Source: Escherichia coli
GTDB taxonomy: Bacteria; Pseudomonadota; Gammaproteobacteria; Enterobacterales; Enterobacteriaceae
Strand: one strand, 5' to 3'
DNA length: 64,000 nucleotides
Assembly: GCF_003334385.1 (NCBI RefSeq)
Contig: NZ_QOWN01000018.1
The notes under the pieces: model-generated
What the model was told of the DNA's origin: nothing
Seen by the model: the letters and a program-made list of their open reading frames with translations, nothing else
The model's database searches: none
Made by a program: the position numbers and the translations under genes
Part shown: positions 1 through 31,243 of the stretch, piece after piece
Numbering within the stretch: the stretch's first letter is position 1
Layout: every line of letters starts with the position of its first letter

Positions 1-77
1 TGTTTTTGTCATGTGAGTCACCTCTGACTGAGAGTTTACTCACTTAGCCGCGTGTCCACTATTGCTGGGTAAGATCA
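1..77 (-). mobile_element. IS3 terminal fragment: terminal inverted repeat plus first codons of orfA (element continues beyond window start)
   Basis: Reverse complement of 1-77 reads TGATCTTACCCAGCAATAGTGGACACGCGGCTAAGTGAGTAAACTC...CATGACAAAAACA, recognised from memory as the IS3 end followed by the orfA ATG (12..10 on minus strand). Confidence 0.7.
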
Positions 78-421
78 GTGCCTGGCACACGCGTTTGATG
101 GAAGACGGCGTTCAGGCAATGCGCGATTATCTTGCCGGACTGGATATCGCTTCGCCAGAGCATCAGGTTCTGATGAACGTAACAGCAAAAAGCGAGGTCG
201 CTCCGTCAATTATCAAAGAAAATCTCTCATTACACTTAACTCATACGGTGAAATGGACTGAATCTCTCGATACATTTCTGAATATGCCAACCCCGGTAGC
301 TTTCCTTGAAATAAGTAATAAGCCCTATTTGGGGAATATGTTAAATGATTTTGCTGGCGTGGATCAGCAACGAGTTATGCATTGTCGTAAAGCATTTAGT
401 GATGCAAAGGTATTCAAATGA
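62..421 (+). pseudogene. ymdE: ymdE-like gene remnant (C-terminal fragment of an acyltransferase-type protein) truncated at its 5' end by IS3
   Basis: 119-aa ORF abuts the IS3 end and its first codons are IS3-derived; sits immediately upstream of ycdU as in K-12. Confidence 0.5.
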
Positions 422-1404
422 TTCCTGATTATTTAACTTTTATTCGCTTTCAGGATAAACGAAATCTGATATACATTTATGCTATTGGACTTATTCTGAT
501 AGGCTTTTATTGGAAGAATGCAGGGTTTACTTTTCCATCAGAGGATATTGGTGTAGTTAGTGGGATTCTGGCTCTGGTGCTGTATAATTTTATTTTTGAT
601 CTCAAGGCGTACTGGGCTTATAAATGCGTCACGAAGAATATCGATTTTTCGTGGTTTAAGAAAAAGCAGAACCACAAAATAGAATTATTTCTTACACAAC
701 CTCTGGTGGCAGGATTTCTGTCGTTAATCATGTTGAGTGCAATGAGTTGGGGGCTATACCAGCTTCTACCCTCGTTATATGCGCTGTTCCTGATTTCGTT
801 ACTTGGGCCGTTGGTCATCTTTCTGCTGTTTCGGATGATCCGCACCAGTTATGTCAAGCAGGTCGCTATTTCAGTAGCGAAAAAAGTAAAATATAAAAGT
901 CTGACTCGCTATGTGCTGCTTTCGGTGTGCATCTCAACGGTTGTTAACCTGCTTACTATCAGCCCGTTGCGTAACAGTGATTCTTTTGTGACAGAGGGGC
1001 AGTGGTTAACGTTTAAATCGATAATTGCATTGCTCATTCTTTGTGGCGTAGTGTTGGCGATTAATCTGTTTTTTCTGCGCTTCTCCAAGCGGTACGCTTT
1101 TCTGGGCAGGCTTTTTTTGCAGGAAATCGATCTGTTTTTCTCCAGTGAAAATGCGTTGTCGACCTTTTTTGCCAAGCCGCTTTGGCTTCGGTTATTCATA
1201 TTGCTGGTTATTGAAGTGATGTGGATTACGCTGGTGTCGGTATTGGCAACGCTTGTAGAATGGCGGATTTGGTTTGAAGCCTATTTTTTACTCTGCTATG
1301 TACCGTGCTTAATTTACTATTTTTTCTATTGTCGATTCCTCTGGCATAACGATTTTATGATGGCATGTGACATGTATTTCCGTTGGGGGCATTTTAATAA
1401 GTGA
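418..1404 (+). CDS. ycdU: inner membrane protein YcdU (multi-pass, unknown function)
   Basis: 328-aa ORF, strongly hydrophobic with multiple predicted TM segments; position between ymdE and serX. Confidence 0.8.
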
Positions 1405-1535
1405 GGAAGTGATAGGAAGTGACCAGATAATACATATATGTTCTGTACTCTCTTGCGCATTTTGATTGTTGACTGAGTAACCAGACAGTTGATGTGCACG
1501 ATTTCCCCTCGCCCTAACAGACGTGGGCGGGGGCA

Positions 1536-2158
1536 CCCGGTGTGTGCAATATACGAAAAAAAAGCCCGTACTTTCGTACGAGCTCTTCTTTAAATATGGC
1601 GGTGAGGGGGGGATTGACTCGCTTCGCTCGCCCTGCGGGCAGCCCGCTCACTGCGTTCACGGTCTGTCCAACTGGCTGTCGCCAGTTGTCGACCCCCGGT
1701 CGGGGCTTCTCATCCCCCCGGTGTGTGCAATATACGAAAAAAAAGCCCGTACTTTCGTACGAGCTCTTCTTTAAATATGGCGGTGAGGGGGGGATTGACT
1801 CGCTTCGCTCGCCCTGCGGGCAGCCCGCTCACTGCGTTCACGGTCTGTCCAACTGGCTGTCGCCAGTTGTCGACCCCCGGTCGGGGCTTCTCATCCCCCC
1901 GGTGTGTGCAATATACGAAAAAAAAGCCCGTACTTTCGTACGAGCTCTTCTTTAAATATGGCGGTGAGGGGGGGATTGACTCGCTTCGCTCGCCCTGCGG
2001 GCAGCCCGCTCACTGCGTTCACGGTCTGTCCAACTGGCTGTCGCCAGTTGTCGACCCCCGGTCGGGGCTTCTCATCCCCCCGGTGTGTGCAATATACGAA
2101 AAAAAAGCCCGTACTTTCGTACGAGCTCTTCTTTAAATATGGCGGTGAGGGGGGGATT
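1536..2158. repeat. Perfect tandem repeat, 181-bp unit x about 3.4 copies, each containing a copy of the last 19 nt of tRNA-Ser plus the tRNA terminator hairpin
   Basis: Identical 181-bp units begin at 1536, 1717, 1898 and 2079; the last copy merges into the genuine serX 3' end; motif TGGCGGTGAGGGGGGGATT recurs at period 181. Confidence 0.9.
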
Positions 2159-2227
2159 CGAACCCCCGATACGTTGCCGTATACACACTTTCCAGGCGTG
2201 CTCCTTCAGCCACTCGGACACCTCACC
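2140..2227 (-). tRNA. serX: tRNA-Ser (anticodon GGA)
   Basis: Reverse complement is GGTGAGGTGTCCGAGTGGCTGAAGGAGCACGCCTGGAAAGTGTGTATACGGCAACGTATCGGGGGTTCGAATCCCCCCCTCACCGCCA, an 88-nt class II tRNA with long variable arm and encoded CCA. Confidence 0.92.
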
Positions 2228-2421
2228 AAATTGTCGTTCCTGTCTTGCTGGAACGGGCGCTAATTTAGGGAAATCATGACCTGAGGTCAACAAACTTTTT
2301 GAAAAAATCGCGCGTTTATTCAAACTTCAATCAATGTGTGGTTTTAATAAGCGAAATCTGCTTTTTTTGCCACCGACCACGGATTTGTTATGCTGGTGGC
2401 CTTTGTAGATCATAACGATAA

Positions 2422-3399
<978 letters not shown>

Positions 3400-3453
3400 T
3401 AAAGCATCAGGATTCCTGCTATCCTTGGCGGGAATTGAATACAGGAGAGAGTT

Positions 3454-4191
3454 ATGTATCCCGTCGACCTTCATATGCATACCGTTGCCAGCACACATGC
3501 ATATAGCACATTAAGTGATTACATTGCCCAGGCCAAACAAAAGGGCATTAAACTTTTTGCGATCACCGATCATGGCCCGGATATGGAAGATGCGCCGCAT
3601 CACTGGCACTTCATTAACATGCGTATCTGGCCGCGAGTGGTTGATGGGGTAGGGATCCTGCGCGGCATCGAAGCTAACATTAAAAATGTTGATGGTGAAA
3701 TTGACTGCAGCGGTAAAATGTTTGACTCGCTGGATCTAATTATTGCCGGTTTTCATGAGCCGGTTTTTGCGCCACATGACAAAGCGACCAATACACAAGC
3801 GATGATCGCCACTATCGCCAGCGGCAATGTGCATATAATAAGCCATCCCGGAAATCCCAAATATGAAATAGATGTGAAAGCCGTTGCTGAAGCAGCCGCG
3901 AAACATCAGGTGGCGCTGGAAATCAATAATTCCTCATTTTTACACTCACGTAAGGGCAGTGAAGACAACTGTCGTGAGGTAGCCGCAGCGGTACGTGATG
4001 CTGGAGGTTGGGTGGCATTAGGCTCGGATTCTCACACCGCGTTTACCATGGGGGAATTTGAAGAGTGTCTTAAAATCCTCGACGCGGTAGATTTTCCGCC
4101 AGAGCGCATTTTGAATGTTTCTCCGCGCCGCTTACTGAACTTCCTTGAATCTCGCGGTATGGCACCGATTGCGGAATTTGCAGACCTTTAA
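3454..4191 (+). CDS. ycdX: PHP-domain zinc-dependent phosphatase YcdX
   Basis: 245-aa ORF starting [20 protein letters not shown] (PHP-domain histidine motifs). Confidence 0.9.
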
Positions 4192-4214
4192 TTACTAGTA
4201 ATGGAAATATATTA

Positions 4215-4769
4215 ATGAACGAGTTTTCTATCCTCTGTCGTGTGCTGGGTTCGCTCTATTACCGCCAACCACAAGATCCTTTACTGGTGCCGCTGTTTAC
4301 CCTGATTCGTGAGGGGAAACTGGCTGCGAACTGGCCACTGGAGCAGGATGAGTTGCTGACACGTTTGCAGAAAAGCTGTGATATGACGCAAGTCTCTGCC
4401 GATTACAATGCGTTGTTTATCGGCGATGAATGTGCTGTGCCGCCATATCGTAGCGCATGGGTTGAGGGCGCGACGGAAGCGGAAGTGCGCGCTTTTCTTT
4501 CTGAGCGAGGGATGCCATTAGCGGATACGCCAGCCGATCACATCGGCACATTGCTGCTCGCAGCTTCCTGGCTGGAAGATCAGTCAACGGAAGATGAGAG
4601 CGAAGCACTGGAAACACTGTTCAGTGAGTATCTGTTACCCTGGTGTGGTGCGTTCCTTGGCAAAGTGGAGGCCCATGCAACCACGCCTTTCTGGCGCACC
4701 ATGGCACCGCTAACCCGCGATGCCATTAGTGCAATGTGGGACGAGCTGGAAGAAGATTCTGAAGAATAA
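4215..4769 (+). CDS. ycdY: chaperone YcdY (redox-enzyme maturation protein family)
   Basis: 184-aa ORF directly downstream of ycdX. Confidence 0.85.
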   Translation: MNEFSILCRVLGSLYYRQPQDPLLVPLFTLIREGKLAANWPLEQDELLTRLQKSCDMTQVSADYNALFIGDECAVPPYRSAWVEGATEAEVRAFLSERGMPLADTPADHIGTLLLAASWLEDQSTEDESEALETLFSEYLLPWCGAFLGKVEAHATTPFWRTMAPLTRDAISAMWDELEEDSEE

Positions 4770-4870
4770 GTGTGATCTACGTCACTCATAACTGCAACGG
4801 ATAATTTGTTGTTGCATAAAATGTGTGCTCGATCTCATTCATGGCCGCGTTTTCTGCTATCATGCGCGGC

Positions 4871-5362
4871 ATGAACATACTTCTCTCTATTGCAATCACA
4901 ACAGGCATTCTCTCCGGTATCTGGGGATGGGTGGCTGTTTCCCTGGGCTTACTAAGCTGGGCGGGCTTCCTGGGCTGTACGGCCTACTTTGCCTGCCCGC
5001 AAGGTGGGCTGAAAGGGCTGGCGATCTCCGCTGCAACCCTGCTTAGTGGCGTGGTGTGGGCGATGGTCATTATTTACGGTAGTGCACTGGCACCACATCT
5101 GGAAATTCTCGGTTATGTCATAACCGGTATTGTCGCGTTTCTGATGTGTATTCAGGCCAAACAGCTGCTGCTTTCATTTGTTCCGGGGACGTTTATAGGC
5201 GCATGCGCGACGTTTTCCGGGCAGGGTGACTGGAAACTGGTGTTACCTTCGCTGGCGCTTGGGCTGATATTTGGTTACGCAATGAAAAACAGTGGCCTGT
5301 GGCTGGCGGCGCGTAGTGCAAAGACGGCGCACCGTGAGCAGGAAATCAAAAATAAAGCGTGA
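4871..5362 (+). CDS. ycdZ: inner membrane protein YcdZ
   Basis: Hydrophobic ORF; start trimmed to MNILLSIAITTG to give 163 aa. Confidence 0.8.
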   Translation: MNILLSIAITTGILSGIWGWVAVSLGLLSWAGFLGCTAYFACPQGGLKGLAISAATLLSGVVWAMVIIYGSALAPHLEILGYVITGIVAFLMCIQAKQLLLSFVPGTFIGACATFSGQGDWKLVLPSLALGLIFGYAMKNSGLWLAARSAKTAHREQEIKNKA

Positions 5363-5425
5363 GGGGCACTCACGCTTTCGCTTAAACAGTAAAATGCCGG
5401 ATGATAATTCCGGCTTTTTTATCTG

Positions 5426-6259
5426 TCAGGATTCCGGTGGAACCGACATATGGCGGTATTTCACCAGAATGTCATTCTGCCGTTCTGCTTTATTTTGCAA
5501 ATCCCACAGACCACGGTCGATACCATCATTAATCAGGAAAATGACCCCTGTTTCGATAGCCGACATCAGGCACAGCATAACAGGTTCGTTCGAGGTGTAA
5601 CCCACTTCCCCTTCAAGCAAGCGCTGGTAGTCAATAAAGCGGAAAACCCCGGCCTGAACTTCATAGGAAAGTATCGTCTTACTGGTGTTCACCGAAGAAA
5701 GGATCTCGCCGGTACTCACATTGACGACGCGCAGGTTCACGGCAATCTGATCGAGCTGGTATTGCGTGTCGGCACCGATGCCAAAATATCTTGCCCCAAC
5801 CCCGCCAGATTTGACGTTGCTTTCATAACCGATAATCGAACCTTCAACCATGATATTTGCCGCCGTTAAAGATTGCAGCGGGATTCGGTTATTAATGGCA
5901 ACCGTGCCGTTTTCTTGTGCCGCACGAATAATCTTGCGCTCGTTAAGCAGGTTTTGTAAGCCCTGGCGCTCCAGCGGTATAAACCAGCGAGAATCTTTCA
6001 GTGCCGTGACCAGCATTGCCGTGGCGCTTTGCGGAACAGCAGTGGAGAAGTTACTTGCCGGGTAGGGTTTAAATTGCCCGGTTTCGTCCTGAATGTTGTA
6101 TACCGAAACAAAGATTTTACCCGTCGGCGCTGGCAGATGGGTCAAATCTTTGTAGCTCTGAGCACGAGGCATTAATGTCGGTCTGGCGGCTTCTTTAGGC
6201 GGGGCGGTTAAGCATCCGCTCAGTAACATGACGGCAACCAAAAGAAATAAGCGCTGCAT
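5426..6259 (-). CDS. csgG: curli secretion channel lipoprotein CsgG
   Basis: 277 aa with lipoprotein signal MQRLFLLVAVMLLSGC; last gene of csgDEFG. Confidence 0.95.
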   Translation of the reverse strand: MQRLFLLVAVMLLSGCLTAPPKEAARPTLMPRAQSYKDLTHLPAPTGKIFVSVYNIQDETGQFKPYPASNFSTAVPQSATAMLVTALKDSRWFIPLERQGLQNLLNERKIIRAAQENGTVAINNRIPLQSLTAANIMVEGSIIGYESNVKSGGVGARYFGIGADTQYQLDQIAVNLRVVNVSTGEILSSVNTSKTILSYEVQAGVFRFIDYQRLLEGEVGYTSNEPVMLCLMSAIETGVIFLINDGIDRGLWDLQNKAERQNDILVKYRHMSVPPES

Positions 6260-6285
6260 GATTATTTTCCTTATGAAGCTGGGGC

Positions 6286-6702
6286 TTAAAAATCGGTTGA
6301 GTTATTTTGTAAACCCGAAACCTGGATGGTCGAGGTTTGTCCGGTTTTACGATCTGTCACGTTCAACTGCAATTGACCATCGCGGTTGGCAATATCGACA
6401 ATATAATCGTTGGTCACCATGCGGCCCGGTTTACCGGTATTAATATTCGACAGTAGCCCACCTAAAATTTGTGACTGGATGGCCTGAGTAAAGTTATCTA
6501 ACGCTGAGGGTGTTTCAATACCAAAGTCATCGTTATAGCTCGGATCTTTATAAGAGTTTTGGGCCTGAGCGCTATTTAATAAAAAAGCGCCATTATTTGG
6601 GTTACCACCAAAGTTTGGATTACGGAACTGGAAAGTCATGGTTCCAGCCCAACTTAATGGCGAAATAAGCATGAGTAGAACTACTGCATGTTTGACACGC
6701 AT
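6286..6702 (-). CDS. csgF: curli assembly protein CsgF
   Basis: 138-aa secreted protein, operon position. Confidence 0.93.
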
Positions 6703-6726
6703 TGCAGCCTCCGAACAATTTTTTAT

Positions 6727-7116
6727 TTAGAATTCATCATGCGCCAAATCGCCCGTACTTAATAACGCCTGATTTATCTGGCGACGATTTAGTGCTTCTT
6801 CAGTTTGAATCAGTGCAAAGACGACAGTTTTCTCGAAGTCTCTTTTCAACGGAAATAAAAAAGTCTGGAAAATAACGTCCTGATTGACCGTTATAGTGAT
6901 CCAGCTTCCCCATCGTGCACTGGGCCTTTCATTAATCGTTAAGTTACCCGTATAGTCACTTTCCCATTTATCACTAAAGGCTCGGTAAAAATCATGGCCA
7001 ATAGATGAAACAGTATGGTCAGTTAGCAATCCCGGGACTTCTACCTCAACGGCGTGAAGATTCCCTGCGGCGAACAGAAATTCTGCCGCCACAATCCAGC
7101 GTAAATAACGTTTCAT
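6727..7116 (-). CDS. csgE: curli secretion specificity factor CsgE
   Basis: 129-aa secreted protein, operon position. Confidence 0.93.
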
Positions 7117-7120
7117 GGCT

Positions 7121-7771
<651 letters not shown>

Positions 7772-8525
7772 GATGAAACCCCGCTTTTTTTATTGATCGC
7801 ACACCTGACAGCTGCCTCTAAAATAGAAGCACCAGAAGTACTGACAGATGTTGCACTGCTGTGTGTAGTAATAAATCAGCCCTAAATGGGTAAAATATAA
7901 AACTAATGGATTACATCTGATTTCAATCTAGCCATTACAAATCTTAAATCAAGTGTTAAACATGTAACTAAATGTAACTCGTTATATTAAAATGTTAACC
8001 TTAAGGTTTTATTAAGTTTAGAAATGATAGAAAAGTTGTACATTTGGTTTTTATTGCACAATTTTAAAAAATCATACAAATGGTGATAACTTACTAATAA
8101 TGCATATAAAAAATATTTCGGTGTAGTCCTTTCGTCATGTAAAACGTTCTTGTTTTTTCTCCACACCTCCGTGGACAATTTTTTACTGCAAAAAGACGAG
8201 GTTTGTCACGGCTTGTGCGCAAGACATATCGCAGCAATCAGCGACGGGCAAGAAGAATGACTGTCTGGTGCTTTTTGATAGCGGAAAACGGAGATTTAAA
8301 AGAAAACAAAATATTTTTTTGCGTAGATAACAGCGTATTTACGTGGGTTTTAATACTTTGGTATGAACTAAAAAAGAAAAATACAACGCGCGGGTGAGTT
8401 ATTAAAAATATTTCCGCAGACATACTTTCCATCGTAACGCAGCGTTAACAAAATACAGGTTGCGTTAACAACCAAGTTGAAATGATTTAATTTCTTAAAT
8501 GTACGACCAGGTCCAGGGTGACAAC
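7772..8525. promoter_or_regulatory. csgD-csgB divergent intergenic control region (csgDEFG and csgBAC promoters)
   Basis: 754-bp AT-rich non-coding gap between divergent csgD and csgB; known to carry sigma-S dependent promoters and multiple regulator binding sites. Confidence 0.85.
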
Positions 8526-8981
8526 ATGAAAAACAAATTGTTATTTATGATGTTAACAATACTGGGTGCGCCTGGGATTGCAGCCGCAGCAGGTTATGAT
8601 TTAGCTAATTCAGAATATAACTTCGCGGTAAATGAATTGAGTAAGTCTTCATTTAATCAGGCAGCCATAATTGGTCAAGCTGGGACTAATAATAGTGCTC
8701 AGTTACGGCAGGGAGGCTCAAAACTTTTGGCGGTTGTTGCGCAAGAAGGTAGTAGCAACCGGGCAAAGATTGACCAGACAGGAGATTATAACCTTGCATA
8801 TATTGATCAGGCGGGCAGTGCCAACGATGCCAGTATTTCGCAAGGTGCTTATGGTAATACTGCGATGATTATCCAGAAAGGTTCTGGTAATAAAGCAAAT
8901 ATTACACAGTATGGTACTCAAAAAACGGCAATTGTAGTGCAGAGACAGTCGCAAATGGCTATTCGCGTGACACAACGTTAA
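8526..8981 (+). CDS. csgB: minor curlin subunit / nucleator CsgB
   Basis: Start trimmed to MKNKLLFMMLTILG; curlin repeats (Q/N-rich). Confidence 0.95.
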   Translation: MKNKLLFMMLTILGAPGIAAAAGYDLANSEYNFAVNELSKSSFNQAAIIGQAGTNNSAQLRQGGSKLLAVVAQEGSSNRAKIDQTGDYNLAYIDQAGSANDASISQGAYGNTAMIIQKGSGNKANITQYGTQKTAIVVQRQSQMAIRVTQR

Positions 8982-9021
8982 TTTCCATTCGACTTTTAAA
9001 TCAATCCGATGGGGGTTTTAC

Positions 9022-9477
9022 ATGAAACTTTTAAAAGTAGCAGCAATTGCAGCAATCGTATTCTCCGGTAGCGCTCTGGCAGGTGTTGTTCCTCAGTACG
9101 GCGGCGGCGGTAACCACGGTGGTGGCGGTAATAATAGCGGCCCAAATTCTGAGCTGAACATTTACCAGTACGGTGGCGGTAACTCTGCACTTGCTCTGCA
9201 AACTGATGCCCGTAACTCTGACTTGACTATTACCCAGCATGGCGGCGGTAATGGTGCAGATGTTGGTCAGGGCTCAGATGACAGCTCAATCGATCTGACC
9301 CAACGTGGCTTCGGTAACAGCGCTACTCTTGATCAGTGGAACGGCAAAAATTCTGAAATGACGGTTAAACAGTTCGGTGGTGGCAACGGTGCTGCAGTTG
9401 ACCAGACTGCATCTAACTCCTCCGTCAACGTGACTCAGGTTGGCTTTGGTAACAACGCGACCGCTCATCAGTACTAA
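9022..9477 (+). CDS. csgA: major curlin subunit CsgA
   Basis: 151 aa with Gly-rich N-terminus and SxxxQxGxGNxAxxxQ curlin repeats. Confidence 0.97.
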   Translation: MKLLKVAAIAAIVFSGSALAGVVPQYGGGGNHGGGGNNSGPNSELNIYQYGGGNSALALQTDARNSDLTITQHGGGNGADVGQGSDDSSIDLTQRGFGNSATLDQWNGKNSEMTVKQFGGGNGAAVDQTASNSSVNVTQVGFGNNATAHQY

Positions 9478-9535
9478 TACATCATTTGTATTACAGAAAC
9501 AGGGCGCAAGCCCTGTTTTTTTTCGGGAGAAGAAT

Positions 9536-10300
<765 letters not shown>

Positions 10301-10394
10301 GTTTCTGAACAACTCACGTTGCTGAGCAGAAAAATGCGATTTAACCAAAAAGCCTGCTGTACACTTAAGAAACAAGAAGGTGTAAGGAGGCGTT

Positions 10395-10928
10395 ATGAAA
10401 ACGCGTATTCATGTTGTGCAGGGTGATATTACCAAACTGGCCGTTGATGTGATTGTGAATGCGGCTAATCCGTCATTAATGGGAGGCGGCGGCGTCGATG
10501 GGGCCATTCATCGCGCAGCGGGTCCGGCCCTGCTGGATGCTTGTTTAAAAGTCAGGCAACAGCAGGGCGATTGCCCTACGGGGCATGCCGTTATTACGCT
10601 TGCAGGCGATCTTCCCGCTAAAGCCGTAGTGCACACCGTCGGGCCAGTCTGGCGTGGTGGTGAACAAAACGAAGACCAGCTTTTGCAGGATGCCTATCTC
10701 AATAGCCTACGACTGGTGGCGGCAAACAGCTATACGTCAGTGGCTTTTCCTGCAATCAGTACTGGGGTTTATGGTTACCCTCGTGCGGCAGCGGCTGAAA
10801 TCGCAGTAAAAACCGTTTCAGAATTTATTACCCGTCACGCTTTACCCGAACAGGTATACTTTGTCTGTTATGATGAAGAAAACGCCCACCTCTACGAAAG
10901 ACTCCTTACCCAACAAGGAGATGAATGA
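10395..10928 (+). CDS. ymdB: macrodomain O-acetyl-ADP-ribose deacetylase YmdB
   Basis: 177 aa with macro-domain motifs ([18 protein letters not shown]). Confidence 0.93.
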
Positions 10929-12351
10929 TTTGCCCCGGCTGGCGAGCGCGGTGCTGCCACTGTGTTCGCAACATCCCGGTCAGTGTGGCCTTTTTCCTCT
11001 GGAGAAAAGTCTGGATGCGTTTGCCGCCCGGTATCGTCTGGCCGAAATGGCAGAGCATACGCTCGATGTTCAGTATTACATCTGGCAGGACGATATGTCG
11101 GGTCGGTTACTGTTTTCCGCCCTGTTAGCCGCAGCAAAGCGTGGCGTTCGCGTCCGTTTGTTGCTGGACGACAACAATACGCCCGGACTTGACGACATTT
11201 TACGCTTGCTTGACAGTCATCCACGCATTGAAGTCCGGCTTTTTAATCCTTTCTCGTTTCGCTTGCTGCGTCCGCTTGGTTATATCACCGACTTTTCCCG
11301 TCTTAATCGCCGTATGCACAATAAAAGTTTCACTGTCGATGGCGTGGTGACCCTGGTGGGAGGACGAAATATTGGTGATGCCTATTTTGGAGCAGGGGAG
11401 GAGCCACTTTTTTCGGATTTAGATGTCATGGCAATAGGACCCGTGGTAGAGGACGTTGCCGATGATTTCGCCCGCTACTGGTATTGCAAATCGGTTTCAC
11501 CCTTACAGCAGGTGCTGGATGTCCCGGAGGGTGAAATGGCGGATCGCATCGAGTTACCCGCCTCCTGGCATAACGATGCCATGACGCATCGTTATTTACG
11601 CAAAATGGAATCCAGTCCATTTATAAATCATCTGGTTGATGGAACATTGCCGCTTATCTGGGCGAAGACACGTTTATTAAGTGATGATCCGGCGAAAGGG
11701 GAGGGCAAGGCAAAACGGCATTCACTGTTACCGCAGCGCCTGTTCGATATCATGGGCTCACCCAGTGAACGCATCGATATTATCTCTTCCTATTTTGTAC
11801 CGACACGCGCAGGTGTGGCGCAACTCTTACGGATGGTGAGAAAAGGGGTAAAGATTGCGATCCTAACCAATTCTCTTGCCGCTAACGATGTTGCTGTCGT
11901 CCATGCCGGATACGCGCGCTGGCGCAAAAAATTGCTCCGCTATGGCGTGGAATTATATGAACTCAAGCCGACGCGTGAACAAAGTAGTACGTTACACGAT
12001 CGCGGCATAACCGGTAATTCCGGAGCCAGCCTGCATGCTAAAACCTTTAGCATCGATGGTAAAACGGTGTTTATCGGCTCTTTCAATTTCGATCCGCGTT
12101 CAACATTGCTCAATACTGAAATGGGCTTCGTGATAGAGAGCGAAACGCTGGCACAGTTAATTGATAAACGCTTTATTCAGAGCCAGTATGATGCGGCCTG
12201 GCAGCTCCGTCTGGACAGGTGGGGACGGATCAACTGGGTTGATCGTCATGCAAAGAAAGAGATTATTCTCAAAAAAGAACCCGCCACCAGTTTCTGGAAG
12301 CGGGTTATGGTCAGACTGGCGTCGATATTGCCCGTGGAATGGTTATTGTAA
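10921..12351 (+). CDS. clsC: cardiolipin synthase C (phospholipase D family); start may instead be the TTG at 10930
   Basis: Two HKD motifs ([18 protein letters not shown]); overlaps ymdB stop (ATGAATGA). Confidence 0.88.
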
Positions 12352-12358
12352 ATGTGGC

Positions 12359-13516
12359 TTAACGGGCTGGTGCTTTATCGTTCTCACGCTTAACAACCGG
12401 TTTACCAGAGAACAAAAACTTCAGTAACGGGATGCGCAAATGAATTTCATACAGAATTATCGCAATCCCTACTACAAATATCAGGCCACAGAGAAAACCA
12501 AGCCAGTTGGAGGTGATGTGCGGTGTAATGTATGCGCCGAAAAACAGCGTTAACGGGTGGTGAACCAGATAGATAAACAGCGATGCGTTAACAAAATAAG
12601 TCACCCGCGCTGACTGGAAGTTAAGCAAACGGTGGCCAAAGGAGAAGACCACATTCACCATCCACAGACCGAGGACCATGGTGATCACCGACTCGGTTTC
12701 GTACATCCAGGCATCGCCACTGCCATAGCGCTGGTTGAGTAAATAAGCGACAAACGCCAATGCTGCTGCAAGGGTACAGCCACGAGACGGCGTGGTAAAC
12801 AAGGCTTTAAGATGAGGGAAAATGAAAGCCAGTGCGCCGAGGATAAAGAACGGCAAATAAAACAGCGTTTGCATGACAATAAAATTGAACATGCCATTAC
12901 TCAGAATGGGCGGATACACAATAAAAATCGTTCTTCTTATTACCGCATAACCGATGCCGAGGCATAAAAAAATCACCGATAGTTTTACCATCGAGAATTT
13001 TTTATTCGTTTTATCAGAATTTTCTAAATTATTTCTGATGCGCTTAAATATCCATACGCACAGCGTCGTCATGACCACTAACACCAGTAAAAACCACAGG
13101 TGTGATATTAATTCCCAGGCCAACGTATTATATTTGTCATACAATGACAGCCCAGGCCAACTTTCCGCTTTTCCTTTGACATATTGCAGCATAATAAATT
13201 GCGGTAATGTCAGTAGGGGGATGGCTGTTAACATCGGGATACCTACACGTTCGACACGTACTTTCCACCATTTTTTCAAGGGATAGCGTAAAAAAAGCAT
13301 GTAGGAAAAGTAGCCGGATATAACGAAAAATACCTGCATGCGGAACGAGTGGATGAAGTCATTAAAAAGGGTCAGCCACAATGATGATTCGGCGCTATTC
13401 ACATGCCATGTATGGCTCGAATAGATTAAAGAAATATGAAAAGGTATCCCTAACAACATCAGCCAGGCGCGGATGGAGTCGAGGAAATATTCACGTTGCG
13501 CGGGTACTGGGTTCAT
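12359..13516 (-). CDS. opgC: osmoregulated periplasmic glucan succinyltransferase OpgC
   Basis: 385-aa multi-pass membrane acyltransferase-3 family protein. Confidence 0.9.
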
Positions 13517-13798
13517 ATATGGTTAACTAATCTCGGATTTTTCGTCTTATCCCTGTCGGGTTATGCCTTTAGGCTTGTTGCCATAGTGACACCGACCTGA
13601 CCGCGCCAGGCGCAGGCTTCAAGGTTTTTATGCATAGCATCATCGCTACCACTAACCAGAATGGAAGCGTCTGTAAGACGGTTGATAAATAAATTTGCTG
13701 GCAAACCCTACACGAAGTCGATGCTTCTGTCTTTAGGAGAAGCACGGAAAGTGAAAACGGTTGCAATCAGGTGCTTAATCCATGAGCCAGCGTGCTGA

Positions 13799-17981
<4,183 letters not shown>

Positions 17982-17989
17982 AAACGTAG

Positions 17990-18091
17990 TTGCCTGATGC
18001 GCTACGCTTATCAGGCCTACATCGTTCCTGCAATTTATTGATTTTGCAAGACTTTGTGGGTCGGATAAGGCGTTCACGCCGCATCCGGCAA
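17990..18091. repeat. REP (repetitive extragenic palindromic) elements downstream of opgH
   Basis: GCCTGATGCGCTACGCTTATCAGGCCTAC and GTCGGATAAGGCGTTCACGCCGCATCCGGCA palindromic units. Confidence 0.8.
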
Positions 18092-18153
18092 AAACAACGA
18101 GCCAATAAAAATACCGGCGTTATGCCGGTATTTTTTTACGAAAGAGGTATCAA

Positions 18154-18381
18154 ATGCGTTTAATTGTGGTGAGCATCATGGTGACCTTGCTGAGTGGCTG
18201 TGGCAGCATTATTAGTCGCACTATACCGGGGCAGGGGCATGGCAACCAATATTATCCCGGTGTGCAATGGGATGTGCGTGACTCCGCCTGGCGTTATGTC
18301 ACGATCCTTGATCTGCCATTCTCTCTGGTTTTTGATACTTTACTGCTGCCGATCGACATTCATCATGGCCCGTATGAGTGA
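18154..18381 (+). CDS. yceK: putative lipoprotein YceK
   Basis: 75 aa with lipobox LLSGC. Confidence 0.88.
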   Translation: MRLIVVSIMVTLLSGCGSIISRTIPGQGHGNQYYPGVQWDVRDSAWRYVTILDLPFSLVFDTLLLPIDIHHGPYE

Positions 18382-18756
18382 TTAACGTTCATCCCACTCA
18401 TCAGCTGCTGCGCGTCCTTCCTCGGTATCCAGCGGTGGCTCAAGCTGAAATTCCCCCTCGTCCCATTCATGTAATGTATTCTCTTCCTGCCACTCCTGGC
18501 GTATCTCTATCTCATCATAGTCGCCATCAAAAACACTTTGCGCGGCTTCACCGCTAAGCATAGGTAAACATTCACCTTCTTCCCCTTCGTCGGCAAAAAA
18601 CTCAACTTGCCACATGATGTCGCCGTCCTGCAAAACGTATTTTTGGGCATTGAACTGTTGCACATTCGCATCTTCGGCGTCGATGCCGGGGTTGTCTGCA
18701 AGAAATTCTTCGCGTGCAGCGTCAATGGCTTCTTCAAGCGTTGCGTACATGGTCAT
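18382..18756 (-). CDS. msyB: acidic protein MsyB
   Basis: Highly acidic 124-aa protein starting MTMYATLEEAIDAAREEF. Confidence 0.9.
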   Translation of the reverse strand: MTMYATLEEAIDAAREEFLADNPGIDAEDANVQQFNAQKYVLQDGDIMWQVEFFADEGEEGECLPMLSGEAAQSVFDGDYDEIEIRQEWQEENTLHEWDEGEFQLEPPLDTEEGRAAADEWDER

Positions 18757-18838
18757 CACGATTCTCCCTTTGAGTTGATGAGGTTTCAGGGAAAAGGATA
18801 GCTGATTCTCCGCTTTTGCAAGTATGAAAGGCGAAAAA

Positions 18839-19887
18839 TCAGTTCGATACCTGGGGTATTCGACGACGACGTAGACTGTTCCATGAATAGACTGCGTTGA
18901 ATAACACTACGCCAGCGGTGACGAGAAATACCGCTCTGAAACCGTAGTTCGCTGAAATCGCTGCTCCCATCAATGGTCCGGTAACGTTGCCAATATCACG
19001 AAACGATTGGTTATAGCTGAAGATACGCCCGGCGATCTGGTTGCTCGAGTTGTAAACCAACAGTGTCTGTACGGCGGGGAGTAGTGCACCATCGGCGGCA
19101 CCGAGCAAAAAACGTAAAATCCCAAGTTGCAATGGCGTCTGAACGTAAGACATTGGGATCAACAGCAGTACAGAAAAGATCAGCGCTGTAATCAGGATCT
19201 TTTCGGGTCCGATTCGATCGCCAAGTTTGCCGAGTCGTGGTGCACTTAGCAGAGCCGCCACGCCTGGCACCGAGGCGATCATGCCACTGATAAAGGCGAC
19301 GTTACTGACGTTACCCGCCAGTTCGCGGACATACAGCGTCAGAATGGGGGCAATTGAGCCCGTCGCCACCTGGATGATTAACGTAGTGACAAACAGGCTG
19401 AGTACCAGTTTCGGGTTTTTAAGTGATGTCACCACTTCCCGCATGTGCAGCATCTCTTTTTTGCTGACCGGCTGGAATTTTTCTCTGATGCAAAACAGGG
19501 TGACGAAAAAGCAGAGTATGAGCACACTGGCGGTAATAAAGAATACCGGACGTAAGCCGTAGCTATCGGCGAGCAGGCCGCCAGCCATTGGGCCGAGCAA
19601 CGCACCACTAACGCCGCCTGTGGAGAGCGTACCCAGCGCCCAGCCGCTTTTATTACGCGGTACTTGTGTGGCGATAAGAGCATTAGCGTTGGGGACAAAT
19701 CCGCCAAGTAACCCAAGAAGCGCCCGCAGGATCAAAAACTGCCAGATATTTTGTGCCAGCCCCATCAACACCATCACGATGCCCATGCCGAGGGCAGAGC
19801 GTAATAGCATGAGTTTTCGGCCTTTACGGTCGGCGAGTCCACCCCAAAACGGTGAGGCGATGGCCGAAAATAAAAATGTAATGCTGA
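18839..19887 (-). pseudogene. mdtG: mdtG 3' fragment (C-terminal about 350 codons of MFS efflux transporter MdtG), separated from its 5' end by the inserted element
   Basis: Reading frame of the 323-aa ORF continues upstream without an ATG to 19887, where MdtG-like sequence (..[17 protein letters not shown]..) is interrupted. Confidence 0.85.
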
Positions 19888-20289
19888 TATTTGTTCCCTA
19901 AATACACCATGAGAACATACCTGTTAATAACAGGACAATATCAGGTGAATGATTATGCAATTCAACGGTGTTTTTCCAAGTATCTAAGCAGTTTTACACA
20001 GATTCTATGCAGTATCGGTATAGTCTCTTTTTAGCATAACTTATTGATATCTATAAAGAATCTGTGAAGTCTCTTTTCAGGGTAAACTGTATCGTGTTAG
20101 TCGTCCCTCTCTCGACTCCTAGAAAAGTGCTATATACAGGGCTATATAACGATATATAGATAGTTGGTCACATGGTGTAACTATCAAGAAACTTAACGAT
20201 TTCCTACGTGAAAGTTAGAAAGTGATGGTTATAGTTACCCTCCTAAAATCTTCATAGCTCCTTCATAACCAGTCTTAAAAGGACTTCCT

Positions 20290-20404
20290 TATGAGACACT
20301 TTCAACGTAACGGTAGAATGCACCTTCCAAGTGTCTCATAAGCTTGTTTTTGAATTATGAGACAGCTAAACTTATGAGACCAACTTTTGAGACTTCTTAG
20401 GGGG
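20290..20404. promoter_or_regulatory. res-like cluster of resolvase-type half-sites (TGTCTCATA, matching TGTCYNNTA) overlapping the promoter of the small serine recombinase gene
   Basis: TATGAGACA at 20290-20298 and inverted TGTCTCATA at 20332-20340; further direct copies at 20357-20365, 20373-20381 and partial at 20387-20394, ending just 5' of the RBS/ATG at 20409. Confidence 0.55.
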
Positions 20405-20408
20405 ATGT

Positions 20409-20957
20409 ATGGCGGTGATTGGTTATTGCAGGGTATCAACACAAGACCAGACTGTAGACAACCAGAAACTACAGATAGAGAAGGTTCACAAGGTCGATAA
20501 ATGGTTTATTGATGAGGCTGTCTCAGGAGCTACAAAGGCCACCAGCAGAGATGGTTTTAGAGACATGATGAACTATGTAAGGTGTGACGATACGTTAGTT
20601 GTGGTAGCTATTGACCGTTTAGGGCGTAATACCGTTGATGTGCTCTCTAACGTGGAGGCACTACAGACTAAAGGTGTGAGGGTTGTTTCTCTACGTGAAG
20701 GTTTCGACTTATTAACACCAATCGGTAGAGCAATGCTTACTATGATGGCTGGTTTAGCTGACCTTGAAAAAGACCTTATCAGTGAACGTAGAAAGGCTGG
20801 TATTGAACGTGCTAAAGCTGAAGGGGTTCACATGGGGAGACCTGTAAAAGCTTCTTCAGAGACTGTAAAGATGCTTATCTCACAAGGTAAAACGAGGTTG
20901 CAGATTCAGGAAGAGCTAGGAATCTCTAGAGCAACTTATTACAGACTTGCTAAATAA
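20409..20957 (+). CDS. small serine recombinase (resolvase/DNA-invertase family) with C-terminal HTH
   Basis: 182 aa; N-terminal catalytic motif VIGYCRVSTQDQ (active-site Ser), resolvase core, C-terminal HTH LGISRATYYRLAK; RBS GGGGGA upstream. Confidence 0.85.
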   Translation: MAVIGYCRVSTQDQTVDNQKLQIEKVHKVDKWFIDEAVSGATKATSRDGFRDMMNYVRCDDTLVVVAIDRLGRNTVDVLSNVEALQTKGVRVVSLREGFDLLTPIGRAMLTMMAGLADLEKDLISERRKAGIERAKAEGVHMGRPVKASSETVKMLISQGKTRLQIQEELGISRATYYRLAK

Positions 20958-21300
20958 GTTACTGAATAGTTACATGGATGTAGCTGATATTTGGCTTTTT
21001 TGCAAAGGGGGTCACATAGCTGGTGTGACGGGTACTTAGCAGGTATAGACCTGTGATAGATATTTTCGAAGATTCGGGGAAGATGAGATTCAAAGAGGGC
21101 TAGTCATTTTTTATAAAAATTTTCAGAATCTGAAAAGTTACTGTACAGAATATATACAGACATCTTTAAAGTATCTGTAAAGACTTTTAAGATAAAAGAT
21201 AGATATCCAGAAAGGATATCCGTTTAGAAAGACTGTTAAGTATCTCTTAAAAGAGAGTAAACCTTGTCAATAGTGATTGCAATAAAAATTTTTATTTCTT

Positions 21301-21963
21301 ATGTCAATTGAGCATATTTTAATCGGGAAGCATCATGGGGGTTCTGATTACTGGAGAACTCCATTTTTGTTATTTAAGAATCTAAACTGTGAATATATTT
21401 TCACGCTGGATGGTGCTGCAACTAAGCACGATACGTTATTACCCCGCTTTACGGATGATATTCACAATCAATCGTGGATTGGCGAAAGGGTGTTCTGTAA
21501 CCCGCCGTACAGCGATATTCCGTCGTTCCTCATAAAAGCGTCTGAGGCAGATTTAGCGGTATTCCTGATACCGTATAGAGCCAACACCAGCTACTGGCTT
21601 AGGCACATTTACAGCAATAACCACTGTCATGAAATCCGTATTCTTCATCGTGCAGTTAAATACCTTCCACCAGCAGGCCATAACGGGCTTACTATTCGTT
21701 CACCGTTTCCAAGTGCAGTCATTGTTTTTAAAAAAGAACCACGCAGGCATGAAATTACGCAGATGATTTGCTGTGCTGATACATTGCTACCGTTAACCAT
21801 CATTAACAGAGGAGGCTTAAGAGGAAGACCCACCATTTACCCACCTGAGACGCTCGACAGCTTCATAAAACTATACAGGCAAGGAAAACCCATTAAGTGC
21901 ATTGCAGATGCTCTCAGAATGCCTCTGAGCACGTCATACAGGATTGCGCAAAGGTTGAGCTAA
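21301..21963 (+). CDS. phage-type DNA N6-adenine methyltransferase (Dam/T1-like family) with C-terminal HTH-like extension; orphan (no cognate nuclease recognised)
   Basis: 220 aa; motifs DYWRTP, FTLDGAA and catalytic CNPPYS (NPPY), ...FPSAVIVF; extra C-terminal approx 70 aa with HTH-like segment. Confidence 0.75.
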   Translation: MSIEHILIGKHHGGSDYWRTPFLLFKNLNCEYIFTLDGAATKHDTLLPRFTDDIHNQSWIGERVFCNPPYSDIPSFLIKASEADLAVFLIPYRANTSYWLRHIYSNNHCHEIRILHRAVKYLPPAGHNGLTIRSPFPSAVIVFKKEPRRHEITQMICCADTLLPLTIINRGGLRGRPTIYPPETLDSFIKLYRQGKPIKCIADALRMPLSTSYRIAQRLS

Positions 21964-22325
21964 AATTCTCATAAATATGGTCATTTACAAGACAGGTGAT
22001 TCAGATATTAAGAAGTATCCCTGTGAACAATAAATGACCAATCAGTAATTATTCTGTGAAATAATTGTTGCAATTTATAATCACATCTGTTATAGTTTCT
22101 ATATGGGCTGATAAAAAAGTTCATGTCTTGAAGTGGTAACACTTGGGGAGGTGTCAGATGGTTGGCGTATAAAACCTCTCATTCATGGTATACCTCAGCG
22201 TTTTAATCATCGTACTGTTTCAGGCATGGACTTCTTTATCAGTCCATCAATCCCCCAGATATTTTAATCACACAGGCTAATCGGTTTTATCCGGTTGGCC
22301 TTTTCACATATGAGGTATTTTATGA

Positions 22326-23294
22326 ATGAAAAAAGAAACTAATGCTTTTATTATGGTAGATAAACGAGTTGCACAATTCCCTAAAACATTAAAGCCAATT
22401 GACCGCTTGGTATATTTCACTATGCTGGATGGTGCTGATTATTACGAATCTAAGTTCGGGAGATATGCACCAAGTATTGACTATTTGATGGTTATGTCTG
22501 GTGCTACACGTAATACAGTTATTGACTCTCTGAAAAGACTTGAGTCACACAGGCTTATTGAGAAGACCAATATCAAAGGGCAGCAAAGTATTTTTAAAGT
22601 ATTCACGTTAGATGAGCGTCCAGAAGTCTTATCAGAACCTACCCTTGATGAGCGTCGTAGAGTCAAATTATCAGGTCAACCAGAATCTGACACTAACCCA
22701 ACCAAAAATTGGTTACCTACCCAACCAGAATTTGGTTACCTACCTAACCAGAAATTGGTTACATGTAATACTGAATATAAAGACAAAAATATAAAAACTA
22801 AAGAAGAAAGACTAAAAGGGAACTTTGAAGAAGAATCTCTTAAGAAGGGAGCTTCGCTCTGTGATTCACATGAATGTGATATTAAAGAAGATGACTTTCT
22901 TTCTTTGGATGAATTAAATGATTTTCTCTCTATGAATGAATCTGACCTTGATAGTGAAGCTACTAAAGAGGTCGTTAAAAAGGAAGATAAAATCTCTGAT
23001 GTGATTGCTAGTAGTGACCATAAAAACACACAGTGCCCCGCCACTGATGATGAGATGGACCCCTTCGATGATGATGAAGAGGATGAAGAGTCAGAACGTG
23101 AAAAAGCCATTAAGAGGGTAGAGAAGAAAAAGAGATTCGAGCTTGCAAGACAAAAGAACAAAGTATCGGGTTTAGACCCATTCGATGACAGTGAAGATGA
23201 TTATTATCTTTCACCGAGAAAGAAACAAACCCAGGATGACAAGAAGCAAAAAATTAAACCGAAGATGTATTTTGCTGGTGGAGGTATGCGCTAA
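22326..23294 (+). CDS. putative replication initiator (winged-helix N-terminal domain, acidic C-terminal tail) with origin-like iterons embedded in its coding sequence
   Basis: 322 aa; N-terminal winged-helix-like region; internal DNA iterons plus AT-rich tract resembling the lambda O/ori arrangement; C-terminus very rich in D/E. Confidence 0.55.
   Translation: MKKETNAFIMVDKRVAQFPKTLKPIDRLVYFTMLDGADYYESKFGRYAPSIDYLMVMSGATRNTVIDSLKRLESHRLIEKTNIKGQQSIFKVFTLDERPEVLSEPTLDERRRVKLSGQPESDTNPTKNWLPTQPEFGYLPNQKLVTCNTEYKDKNIKTKEERLKGNFEEESLKKGASLCDSHECDIKEDDFLSLDELNDFLSMNESDLDSEATKEVVKKEDKISDVIASSDHKNTQCPATDDEMDPFDDDEEDEESEREKAIKRVEKKKRFELARQKNKVSGLDPFDDSEDDYYLSPRKKQTQDDKKQKIKPKMYFAGGGMR
22676..22820. 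repeat. Origin-like iteron array (3-4 direct repeats of about 23 bp, each containing the palindrome AACCARAAWTTGGTT) followed by an AT-rich tract
   Basis: AACCCAACCAAAAATTGGTTACCTAC / CCAACCAGAATTTGGTTACCTAC / CTAACCAGAAATTGGTTACATG at 22695-22765, partial unit at 22677-22693, then AT-rich 22766-22820. Confidence 0.65.
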
Positions 23295-23584
23295 TGAGAG
23301 AATATAACGGTGAAAAACGATACAAAGATTATCTATTAAGGCGCTACAGCATTTCTCGTGAAGGTCATCTTCTGAAAGATACTCATGGGGAGGTTTACCG
23401 GATTCGACCGAAGAAGGAAGGAAAGAATTATTTCTTTTTTGATGGTGTGACAGATTTAAAGATTGACGCTTTGAGGTTTGCAGTGCTGTATCATTATGAT
23501 ATCTGGGATTCGGTCCACCAGCTACGATTAAAAGACGGTGACCCCGGTAATCTGAGGGCCACCAATATCATCACAAAACGTTAG
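23294..23584 (+). CDS. small protein, possibly degenerate HNH/NUMOD-like; function unknown
   Basis: 96 aa; start overlaps stop of upstream gene (TAATG); C-terminal segment LRLKDGDPGNLRATN loosely resembles HNH_3-type motifs. Confidence 0.4.
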   Translation: MREYNGEKRYKDYLLRRYSISREGHLLKDTHGEVYRIRPKKEGKNYFFFDGVTDLKIDALRFAVLYHYDIWDSVHQLRLKDGDPGNLRATNIITKR

Positions 23585-23903
23585 TTTGTTTTACCATCAT
23601 CAATCGTAATTGTGATTTCATATTTGAAAAGCTTAATGCTGAAATTGAATCGTGTACTTTTGGCGATAATCATTTTTAAAAGCTGATACACCAGAAGCAC
23701 CAGAAACACAAAGCAACCTAAGCTTGCGAATCTGTGAGATTCAGCAATTGTTTCAAGAAAGCCCATTAATTCCCCTTATTTATCAAAGGGAATGACCTGT
23801 ATCAGCCCCTATAACCATAATATCATGTAAATGAGATGTTGACAATATGTTAAATAAATGTTAAGATTGTAGTATGAGTAAGAGATTTAAGGAGATTTTT
23901 ACA

Positions 23904-24194
23904 ATGACTCACACAGTTACGCGCCTTTTGCCAGAGGCATTTGAACGACTGGCAGCAATCAAAGCCAAATACCCTGATATGAAGCACACGGCGCTTGTTG
24001 GAGAGCTTTTAAAAGAGTCGGTAGCCCTGACCCCTTTCGATAACGTTAAGGGCGTTGCAGAGGGTTCTAAGGCCATCAGAATCACAACAGGCCAACTGGA
24101 ACTACTCAAAGCGCAGTCCGCAGTAGCAGGTTGCTCAATGATTCAGGTGTTAAGCACTAAGGTTCATCAACTGGCGGATAAATTGGAGGTTTAA
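23904..24194 (+). CDS. hypothetical protein, possible ribbon-helix-helix DNA-binding regulator
   Basis: ORF track 23874..24194; the internal ATG at 23904 is preceded by RBS AAGGAG; predicted beta-strand/helix pattern (TVTRLLPEAFERLAAIKAK). Confidence 0.45.
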   Translation: MTHTVTRLLPEAFERLAAIKAKYPDMKHTALVGELLKESVALTPFDNVKGVAEGSKAIRITTGQLELLKAQSAVAGCSMIQVLSTKVHQLADKLEV

Positions 24195-24580
24195 TGTATG
24201 ACTTTTATAAACATCGTGACCATTTGGTAAGATTTGACGGTAGAGTCTGGAAAGACATAACAGAAACCAATAAACCCAAGTTTACCCACCAGCAATTAGC
24301 CTCAAGATTTGATATCTGGACTGAAGCACAAAAAGATAATGGTGATTTCGAGTTTATCAGGGGTTTTGATTATGCTTACGAAGATGACCTTAAAGACGCC
24401 ATTAAATTAATTGAAAATTTTAATGGAAATAATTCTGGTGACAAACACAAAGCCAATGGTAATCGGTATGACAGGGAGTTAATTCTTGATGCCATTTCCA
24501 GAGGTCAATCACAAAGTTATATTTCTGAGAAATACGGCTTATCACGTAGTCAATACTACAAGATTAAAGCGTCTGTGTAA
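24194..24580 (+). CDS. hypothetical protein with C-terminal HTH (regulator or terminase-small-subunit-like)
   Basis: 128 aa; start coupled to upstream stop (TTAATG) with RBS GGAGG; C-terminal HTH ISEKYGLSRSQYYKIKA. Confidence 0.5.
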   Translation: MYDFYKHRDHLVRFDGRVWKDITETNKPKFTHQQLASRFDIWTEAQKDNGDFEFIRGFDYAYEDDLKDAIKLIENFNGNNSGDKHKANGNRYDRELILDAISRGQSQSYISEKYGLSRSQYYKIKASV

Positions 24581-24717
24581 GCCTGTGAGAATGAGTGAGA
24601 CTCAAAGATGAGCTACCCTATTACTAAGGTGTCTCACTCCCTCTGTAACCCGCATGGTTACTGGCCTCAGAATGGCTATTTTGGCAGATTTAAGATGTGT
24701 TTTAGAGGAATTTAAAA

Positions 24718-25041
24718 ATGAACAACTTCCCATTACAAATTTTCGTTGATAACGACACCGCTCTGATGATTCAGGCTTTCACTGATTCCGGTGTATCAAT
24801 TGACTTTGACAGGCTGTTAGAGTTGATGGCTGATAATGCAGAAAACATCTCTGACTTTATTCAGTCGGTGGAGTTTAACGAGCCTCGAATGATGCTACCA
24901 ATTAAAGACAGCAACATGAAAAGATTGGTTATCGAGCAAACGAACAAATACAGCGTTAGCCCTGAAAGATATCTCAAGGCAGCTATAGCAATTTTGTGCG
25001 CTGACAATATTTTGGTGACGGATTCGAAGGTGGTGCATTAA
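24718..25041 (+). CDS. hypothetical protein
   Basis: 107-aa ORF with RBS AGAGGA; no recognisable motif. Confidence 0.45.
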   Translation: MNNFPLQIFVDNDTALMIQAFTDSGVSIDFDRLLELMADNAENISDFIQSVEFNEPRMMLPIKDSNMKRLVIEQTNKYSVSPERYLKAAIAILCADNILVTDSKVVH

Positions 25042-25118
25042 TGGGCTTAATAATTGCTTGGACAGCTTTGGGTTTATTTGTTGGTTGCTGGGTAGGTAAC
25101 ACAGTAAATAAGAATTGA
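25041..25118 (+). CDS. candidate small hydrophobic peptide (25 aa, single predicted TM helix), translationally coupled to upstream ORF
   Basis: ATG overlaps upstream TAA (TAATGG); encodes MGLIIAWTALGLFVGCWVGNTVNKN; below the size cut-off of the ORF track. Confidence 0.3.
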   Translation: MGLIIAWTALGLFVGCWVGNTVNKN

Positions 25119-25535
25119 TGTTGCCAATCTGTTAAAAAGCTGTTGACAAATAACCTTAAGCATGACATAATTTTAATTATGGGAGAGTAATTCTCTCTTA
25201 TATTTCTTTCAATAATCCGATGGATGGATGGATATTCTGAGTTGGTGAGGTATGTTCTATACCGAACATTCTGAAAGGTGCAATGCTTTTCGCTACATGA
25301 CCTCTTATATAACCTGAGAGGTCATCTCGAAAAGTACTCTTGTTCATTCGTTATTGAATCCTTTAGATGTTTTAATTTCTTCACCTTATGAATAGCCCTT
25401 TATAAGAAATTATCTAGGGCTATTCAGTTTTTAAAAAGCATACTTGGCAAACCGCCTTTTAAGTCTCTTCTAAGTTCGTAGGCTGTCAGGTGTGCTTTTT
25501 AAAAACTGAATATACTTAGAAGAGGAAATGAAATA

Positions 25536-26246: not shown

Positions 26247-26270
26247 TTATGAATTAAGAAGAGGTGATTA

Positions 26271-26480
26271 ATGTTTGAAGAACGTTTAGAGACTATTCGG
26301 TCTGTTTGTGAAAACTTAAAGTTACAAACCAAGCCAGCCTTAAGAATTAAAACCAAACATCAAATTATCACCTCACACAAACCAAAAACACGCAAGATTC
26401 CAAAGTGGTGTATTGACCGTATTCCTTCTGATGCTCAAATCATAGGTGAAACGGAATTACATTATCTTGTCCGACATTAA
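26271..26480 (+). CDS. hypothetical small basic protein
   Basis: 69-aa ORF with RBS GAGGTG. Confidence 0.4.
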   Translation: MFEERLETIRSVCENLKLQTKPALRIKTKHQIITSHKPKTRKIPKWCIDRIPSDAQIIGETELHYLVRH

Positions 26481-31220: not shown

Positions 31221-31243
31221 ATTCAATACCTAAAATGATGTGT

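Follow-up and report, generated by a model that had tools for sequence, protein, structure and literature searches.

The window analysed here, a 64,000-nt stretch of contig NZ_QOWN01000018.1 in the Escherichia coli assembly GCF_003334385.1, opens inside an insertion sequence that abuts a truncated ymdE-like gene. The locus raises the question of what event joined the two, and of whether their junction identifies a K-12 background, as the original prediction held. We read window positions 1–421 as the right-hand edge of a scar left by an old IS3-associated deletion, in which an island between dgcT and ycdU was lost, and we assign this reading a probability of roughly 0.88. Earlier literature was drawn on for this explanation of the scar (PMC4951805, PMC5635171). 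The locus is already known, being annotated in the K-12 reference and with its spread in phylogroup A published, and the scar is of the ordinary kind left by IS deletion.

Window positions 1–19887 aligned without gaps to positions 1095426–1115312 of the MG1655 record NC_000913.3, and no difference from MG1655 was found in 1–1732. The region 1–1400, for which an alignment to MG1655 had been proposed as a check, was thus colinear and identical, and the predicted ycdT (dgcT)-insEF-ymdE-ycdU arrangement and its feature names agreed with the NC_000913.3 annotation. In that annotation, the copy IS3D occupies 1094245–1095502, which places the IS3 terminus exactly at window position 77, and matches to genomic IS3 copies at other sites likewise broke off at 77–79. 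The assignment of the first 77 bp to an IS3 ending at position 77 was borne out by these observations together. The insE4 gene spans 1095138–1095437 with its start at 1095437, which corresponds to window position 12, and the reverse complement of window positions 1–12 (ATGACAAAAACA) equals insE4 codons 1–4. The window therefore begins 12 nt within the transposase gene orfA, and the IS3 end adjoining ymdE is the left end (IRL), lying on the minus strand at 1–77 according to the annotation and the coordinate map. This left end includes the first four codons of insE/orfA (12 to 1, minus strand) with their 5′ leader, and the terminal inverted repeat IRL at about 39–77 (minus strand), which finishes with ...GGGTAAGATCA at position 77.

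The IRL and IRR of the MG1655 copy were aligned over ∼39 nt with TGATC at the start of both, and the full element, which is 1,258 bp long at this locus, has the imperfect TG... inverted repeats and the orfA/orfB organization of IS3, with a programmed frameshift annotated for the transposase; the window itself holds only the IRL and the four orfA codons. Sequence identity to IS3 extended up to the element terminus. A chance match was dismissed because the 77-nt IS3 end recurs among matches at 15,881 places in 4,346 genomes. The 3-bp direct target duplication of IS3 was absent at this locus, where the flanking sequences read ...GCATTT to the left and GTGCCT... to the right, that is, TTT against GTG at the two IS3 borders. 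This absence does not put the identity of the element in question, since a deletion or a recombination between copies predicts it.

The gene next to IS3 was found by mechanical translation as a 119-codon open reading frame at 62–421 on the plus strand. Its TTG start at position 62 and the four codons that follow (MLGKI) are IS3 sequence; this TTG is the sole in-frame start upstream of the ymdE remnant and sits inside the IS3 inverted repeat. Further in-frame starts occur at ATG98 and at ATG119, where the ymdE pseudogene begins in the NC_000913.3 annotation (window 119–421 or 1095544–1095846, plus strand), and PGAP labels window 65–421 as ‘ACP S-malonyltransferase, incomplete, missing N-terminus’. 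Alignment of the window with the O103 strain 2013C-3264 and with DSM 103246 placed the deletion junction at 77..78, between the tip of the IRL (A77) and codon 200 of a FabD-like gene; the junction codon is A/GT (Ser) in the window versus GGT (Gly, codon 200) in the intact gene. The remnant proper, at 78..421 on the plus strand, consists of codons 201–313 and the stop of a 313-codon malonyl-CoA:ACP transacylase-like gene, in agreement with the prediction of a 3′ gene fragment with an IS3-derived apparent start: the start lies inside IS3 and the rest is the last 113 codons of the gene. The ymdE stop overlaps the ATG of ycdU by 4 nt (ATGA at 418–421), and ycdU itself (418..1404 or 1095843–1096829 in NC_000913.3, plus strand) is an intact 328-aa gene.

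Among the genomes in which a junction probe was matched by its non-IS3 half alone is DSM 103246, where the gene truncated in the window is intact. The product is a 313-aa ‘ACP S-malonyltransferase’, which matched Pfam family PF00698 with an E-value of 1.8e-24 and was 28% identical to E. coli FabD over 258 residues (E = 9e-25). The serine of the GHSxGE motif (Ser97 in GHSVGE), the arginine (Arg122, equivalent to Arg117 of FabD) and the histidine (His203, equivalent to His201) are conserved between the two. The window remnant shares 112 of 113 residues with the DSM 103246 protein and retains the region of His203, beginning two codons before that residue, but the nucleophile Ser97 of the GHSxG motif and Arg122 are missing from it, and a Pfam search with the ymdE fragment alone or with the 119-aa reading frame matched no family. 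The full FabD-type PF00698 domain with its Ser, Arg and His is thus present in the intact homologue and not in the window remnant. Since Ser97 and Arg122 are missing and no Pfam family was matched, ymdE is, judged from its sequence, a pseudogene fragment predicted to be incapable of serving alone as a transacylase.

The transacylase gene of DSM 103246 holds the last-but-one place in an operon of fatty-acid/polyketide-like type and is directly followed by ycdU, the final gene of the ancestral operon. The same operon carries genes for a holo-ACP synthase (acpS), an SDR reductase, a FabZ-like dehydratase, an ACP, two ketosynthases, an aminomethyltransferase-family protein, ABC transporter parts and a LolA-like protein. 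The genes upstream of this operon comprise a two-partner secretion pair, fimbrial genes, an SDR family oxidoreductase gene, a winged-helix regulator gene with a frameshift and, adjoining dgcT, a gene for an EAL-domain protein. The sequences that flank IS3D in MG1655 are 31,741 bp apart in DSM 103246, and the interval missing from K-12-type genomes runs from 10 bp after the dgcT stop to codon 200 of the transacylase gene. This interval is exactly the one occupied by the DSM 103246 equivalent of OI-47, which in O157:H7 EDL933 is 31,727 bp long and spans z1528–z1556 (PMC8565820). OI-47 holds the intact form of ymdE, whereas the window keeps just the last 344 bp of that gene along with ycdU and lacks the other roughly 26 genes. 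In the sampled O157:H7 genomes, the left junction probe was matched in its dgcT part alone and the right one in its transacylase part alone, so that IS3 is absent from both junctions. An aryl-polyene cluster was also considered as the identity of the island and was rejected, as both the gene content and the literature (PMC8565820) pointed to OI-47. MG1655 itself has the same IS3 end, junction, pseudogene and downstream gene as the window, in the order IS3D (insE4/insF4, b1027/b1026), ymdE (b1028) and ycdU (b1029), without any difference in 1–421.

On the other side of IS3 lies dgcT, 10 bp from its stop, instead of the 5′ 600 bp of the transacylase gene. Because the gene's first 600 bp are not found beyond IS3 and a target duplication is absent, we consider the structure to be the product of an IS-associated deletion and not of a simple insertion. 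A second allele was recognized by reading the locus of 2013C-3264 (positions 3578–3762), where the window probe matched in two pieces 185 bp apart: IS3 is fused there at codon 139, with 185 bp more of the gene. Between MG1655 and 2013C-3264 the left junction is identical to the base, and 3 differences were counted across the 1,258 nt of IS3 and 6 in each of the flanks compared (1,369 and 1,327 nt). The identical left junction and the few differences in IS3 and its flanks fit a single old IS3 insertion that was inherited vertically and acquired two deletion end-points on the IRL side. Ser97 and Arg122 are encoded upstream of both breakpoints.

The ancestral state would accordingly have been a 31.7-kb OI-47-type island between dgcT and ycdU, with the IS3 state derived from it. 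In the lineage that gave rise to a large part of today's E. coli, one IS3 copy would have come to lie 10 bp past the dgcT stop, everything from the IS3 site to the middle of the transacylase gene would then have been lost, and the left end of IS3 would thereby have been fused to codon 200 in the K-12-type allele of the window or to codon 139 in the second allele. The deletions behind the two alleles may also have happened independently of each other instead of in succession. The deletion was presumably mediated by IS3, either through intramolecular transposition from the IRL end or through recombination between two direct IS3 copies. A simple-insertion intermediate with the IS3 IRL followed by TTT and the island was present in none of the 5,426 complete genomes, and because no intermediate survives, we can only infer in what order the events took place and how the deletion arose.

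The second of these routes, homologous recombination between direct IS3 copies at dgcT and in the transacylase gene in place of a transposase-mediated adjacent deletion, seems to us possible though unlikely. Either route yields one IS3 with unmatched flanks, as observed, and extra IS3 copies are common, with a median of 3 matching places in the genomes that matched an IS3-containing probe. Recombination would, however, require two separate second insertions, at codons 139 and 200, each resolved with the same left junction, and the two-copy intermediate was not found in the 5,426 genomes, where the search covered one type of intermediate.

We then considered whether the remnant left by the deletion may still be expressed. 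Neither a consensus sigma-70 promoter facing the ymdE reading frame nor a plus-strand consensus terminator between dgcT and ymdE was found in scans of window 1–2400 and of the whole MG1655 IS3D region, and the counts of promoters and terminators in these sequences were not above those in shuffled ones. At the gathering threshold, Rfam recognized the serX tRNA alone in window 1–2500, with no RNA family at 1–421, and no Shine-Dalgarno-like sequence was evident by eye before TTG62, ATG98 or ATG119. Any present transcription of ymdE-ycdU would most simply come from dgcT transcripts that continue through IS3. In the window, 2013C-3264 and DSM 103246, whose alleles were read directly, the reading frame of the remnant has been preserved; five differences, four of them synonymous, separate the remnant from the intact gene, and most of these arose in the gene in its full-length state.

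Goldstone et al. found no frameshift in phylogroup A ymdE and a nonsense mutation in one genome only, cited evidence of transcription, and argued that this lack of decay is a sign that ymdE may retain a function; they also reported ymdE-ycdU to be enriched in mastitis isolates (PMC4951805). Their observations on non-decay, transcription and mastitis enrichment, the open frame across 62–421 with its 4-nt overlap with the ycdU ATG, and the lack of interruption in both remnant alleles would all suit a remnant that is not dead and that gives either a short protein from TTG62, ATG98 or ATG119 or a translated leader feeding ribosomes to ycdU. We nevertheless judge such a live remnant improbable: the catalytic Ser and Arg are missing together with any Pfam match, neither an evident Shine-Dalgarno sequence nor a consensus promoter precedes it, and a single substitution in 344 nt separates the window allele from that of 2013C-3264, which is too little divergence to expect decay. 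Because the alleles differ by this one substitution, the absence of decay is uninformative on selection. More specifically, the remnant might have been kept in frame as a co-opted leader whose translation from the IS3 end couples ribosomes into ycdU, an idea that we hold to be very doubtful; if true, an old IS scar would serve the surviving gene of a lost operon and would underlie the mastitis enrichment.

We also measured how widely the junction is distributed. Three 154-nt junction probes with 77 nt on each side were compared with 5,426 complete E. coli genomes at a coverage of at least 80%. The left dgcT–IS3 junction probe was matched in 2,300 genomes and the IS3–ymdE probe from the window, which covers both alleles, in 2,195, where the long allele alone (IS3 fused at codon 139 with the additional 185 bp of the gene) accounted for 716. 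The exact K-12-type IS3–ymdE junction is thus carried by about 1,479 of the 5,426 genomes (2,195 minus 716), or about a quarter, and about 105 genomes have the left junction with neither of the right junctions. In an evenly spaced sample of the ranking, the exact junction was found in one piece in 15 rows, comprising 4 K-12 derivatives and 11 wild isolates from human, chicken, echidna, seawater and tableware sources. The best matches to window 1–1500 include isolates from goose, dog, cucumber and bovine mastitis at 100% identity. Goldstone et al. reported ymdE of the MG1655 length in 79.9% of phylogroup A genomes, and in the drafts that they examined ymdE stops at a contig boundary where the bases are homologous to insE1 (PMC4951805).

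The junction is therefore not restricted to K-12 derivatives, and the idea that an IS3 at this place marks the K-12 lineage is refuted: about 1,479 complete genomes carry it, those sampled are mostly wild, and the published survey agrees (PMC4951805). For typing, the IS3D-ymdE junction cannot call a K-12 background, as it reflects an old insertion common to about 40% of complete E. coli genomes. The nested deletion alleles at codon 200 and codon 139 are more informative, dividing the carriers into two large groups. In several wild strains (e.g. NZ_CP042892.1 and NZ_CP010171.1), window 1–1500 was matched in two pieces with an extra IS5- or IS1-family transposase gene between them, which suggests that IS activity continues in the IS3/ymdE/ycdU stretch.

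Further along the window, a phage-derived element of 11.37 kb (11,372 bp) interrupts mdtG at 19888–31259. It encodes a large serine recombinase (29691–31226, minus strand), a DNA invertase (20409–20957) and a tape-measure protein (26578–28749), together with adenine methyltransferase-like, replication-initiator-like and baseplate/endolysin-like proteins. The original prediction had noted that K-12 references carry nothing at this site, and mdtG is indeed uninterrupted in MG1655. It had also called the element more striking in view of the junction, a point that lost its force as mdtG is interrupted at the same place by a related element in the wild strain A1: this echidna isolate carries the best relative among the 5,426 complete genomes, at about 90% identity. 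Flank-spanning matches suggest that the mdtG site may be likewise occupied in a few other genomes.

We then compared the two arms of the window around this element with NC_000913.3. Over 52.6 kb the two sequences are colinear and 99.97% identical, with 14 substitutions and one 1-bp indel, of which 5 substitutions are in the left arm and 9 substitutions and the indel in the right arm. A three-way comparison of alleles was made between the window, MG1655 and the wild isolates KE58 (urine, USA) and PSS-08-1 (faeces, Ecuador). The window agrees with both wild isolates against MG1655 at four sites, which in ascending order lie at window positions 7717, 37175, 40046 and 63696. They comprise codon 19 of csgD, codon 42 of plsX, a 1-bp indel in the spacer between bssS and dinI, and position 40046; the csgD and plsX codons both specify Ser in MG1655 and Pro in the window and the two wild isolates. 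These four sites are candidate K-12-private alleles and would be better lineage markers than the IS3 junction, and the window carries the MG1655 allele at none of them.

Seven other substitutions, at 5216, 33275, 34749, 36838, 40421, 42926 and 53774, are private to the window with respect to MG1655, KE58 and PSS-08-1. Transversions account for five of them, and five change the encoded residue (ycdZ A116S, trhO P173L, mdtH L286F, yceM L57V and flgJ A151E). All seven are missing even from the best-matching complete genome, and by their pattern they look like recent unselected mutations or sequence errors rather than standing polymorphism. None of the 5,426 complete genomes matched either arm perfectly. 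Wild isolates match both arms as well as K-12 or better; K-12 genomes are among the better matches to the left arm, slightly behind PSS-08-1, and no K-12 genome is among the best 40 matches to window 31260–56000 in the right arm.

That the window comes from a K-12 strain with an extra element in mdtG, its IS3 site being specific to K-12, is therefore scarcely credible to us. The identity of 1–1732 with MG1655, the 99.97% identity overall and the place of K-12 among the better left-arm matches do speak for it, but the exact junction is found in ∼1,479 complete genomes with a wild majority among those sampled, and truncated ymdE is present in 79.9% of phylogroup A (PMC4951805). Moreover, the alleles at the four sites are those of wild isolates and not the MG1655-private ones, K-12 is absent from the top 40 for the right arm, and the mdtG element occurs nowhere in the collection above ∼90% identity. 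Of the predicted K-12-type background, the colinearity and close identity with MG1655 stood, and the assignment to K-12 itself did not. Since the four MG1655-private alleles are missing, seven substitutions are private to the window and mdtG holds an 11.4-kb element, the background is, on these sequence comparisons, that of a close phylogroup-A-type relative of K-12, K-12-like but not K-12 itself.

Downstream of ycdU, we also observed a tandem repeat with a 181-bp unit in 3.4 copies at window 1536–2158, which runs into the serX tRNA-Ser(GGA) gene at 2140–2227. Its copy number is equal to that of NC_000913.3 and one unit fewer than that of another MG1655 record, CP032667.1, in which PGAP labels the repeat units ‘RtT sRNA’. 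Three of the five left-arm differences from MG1655 fall within these 181-bp repeats.
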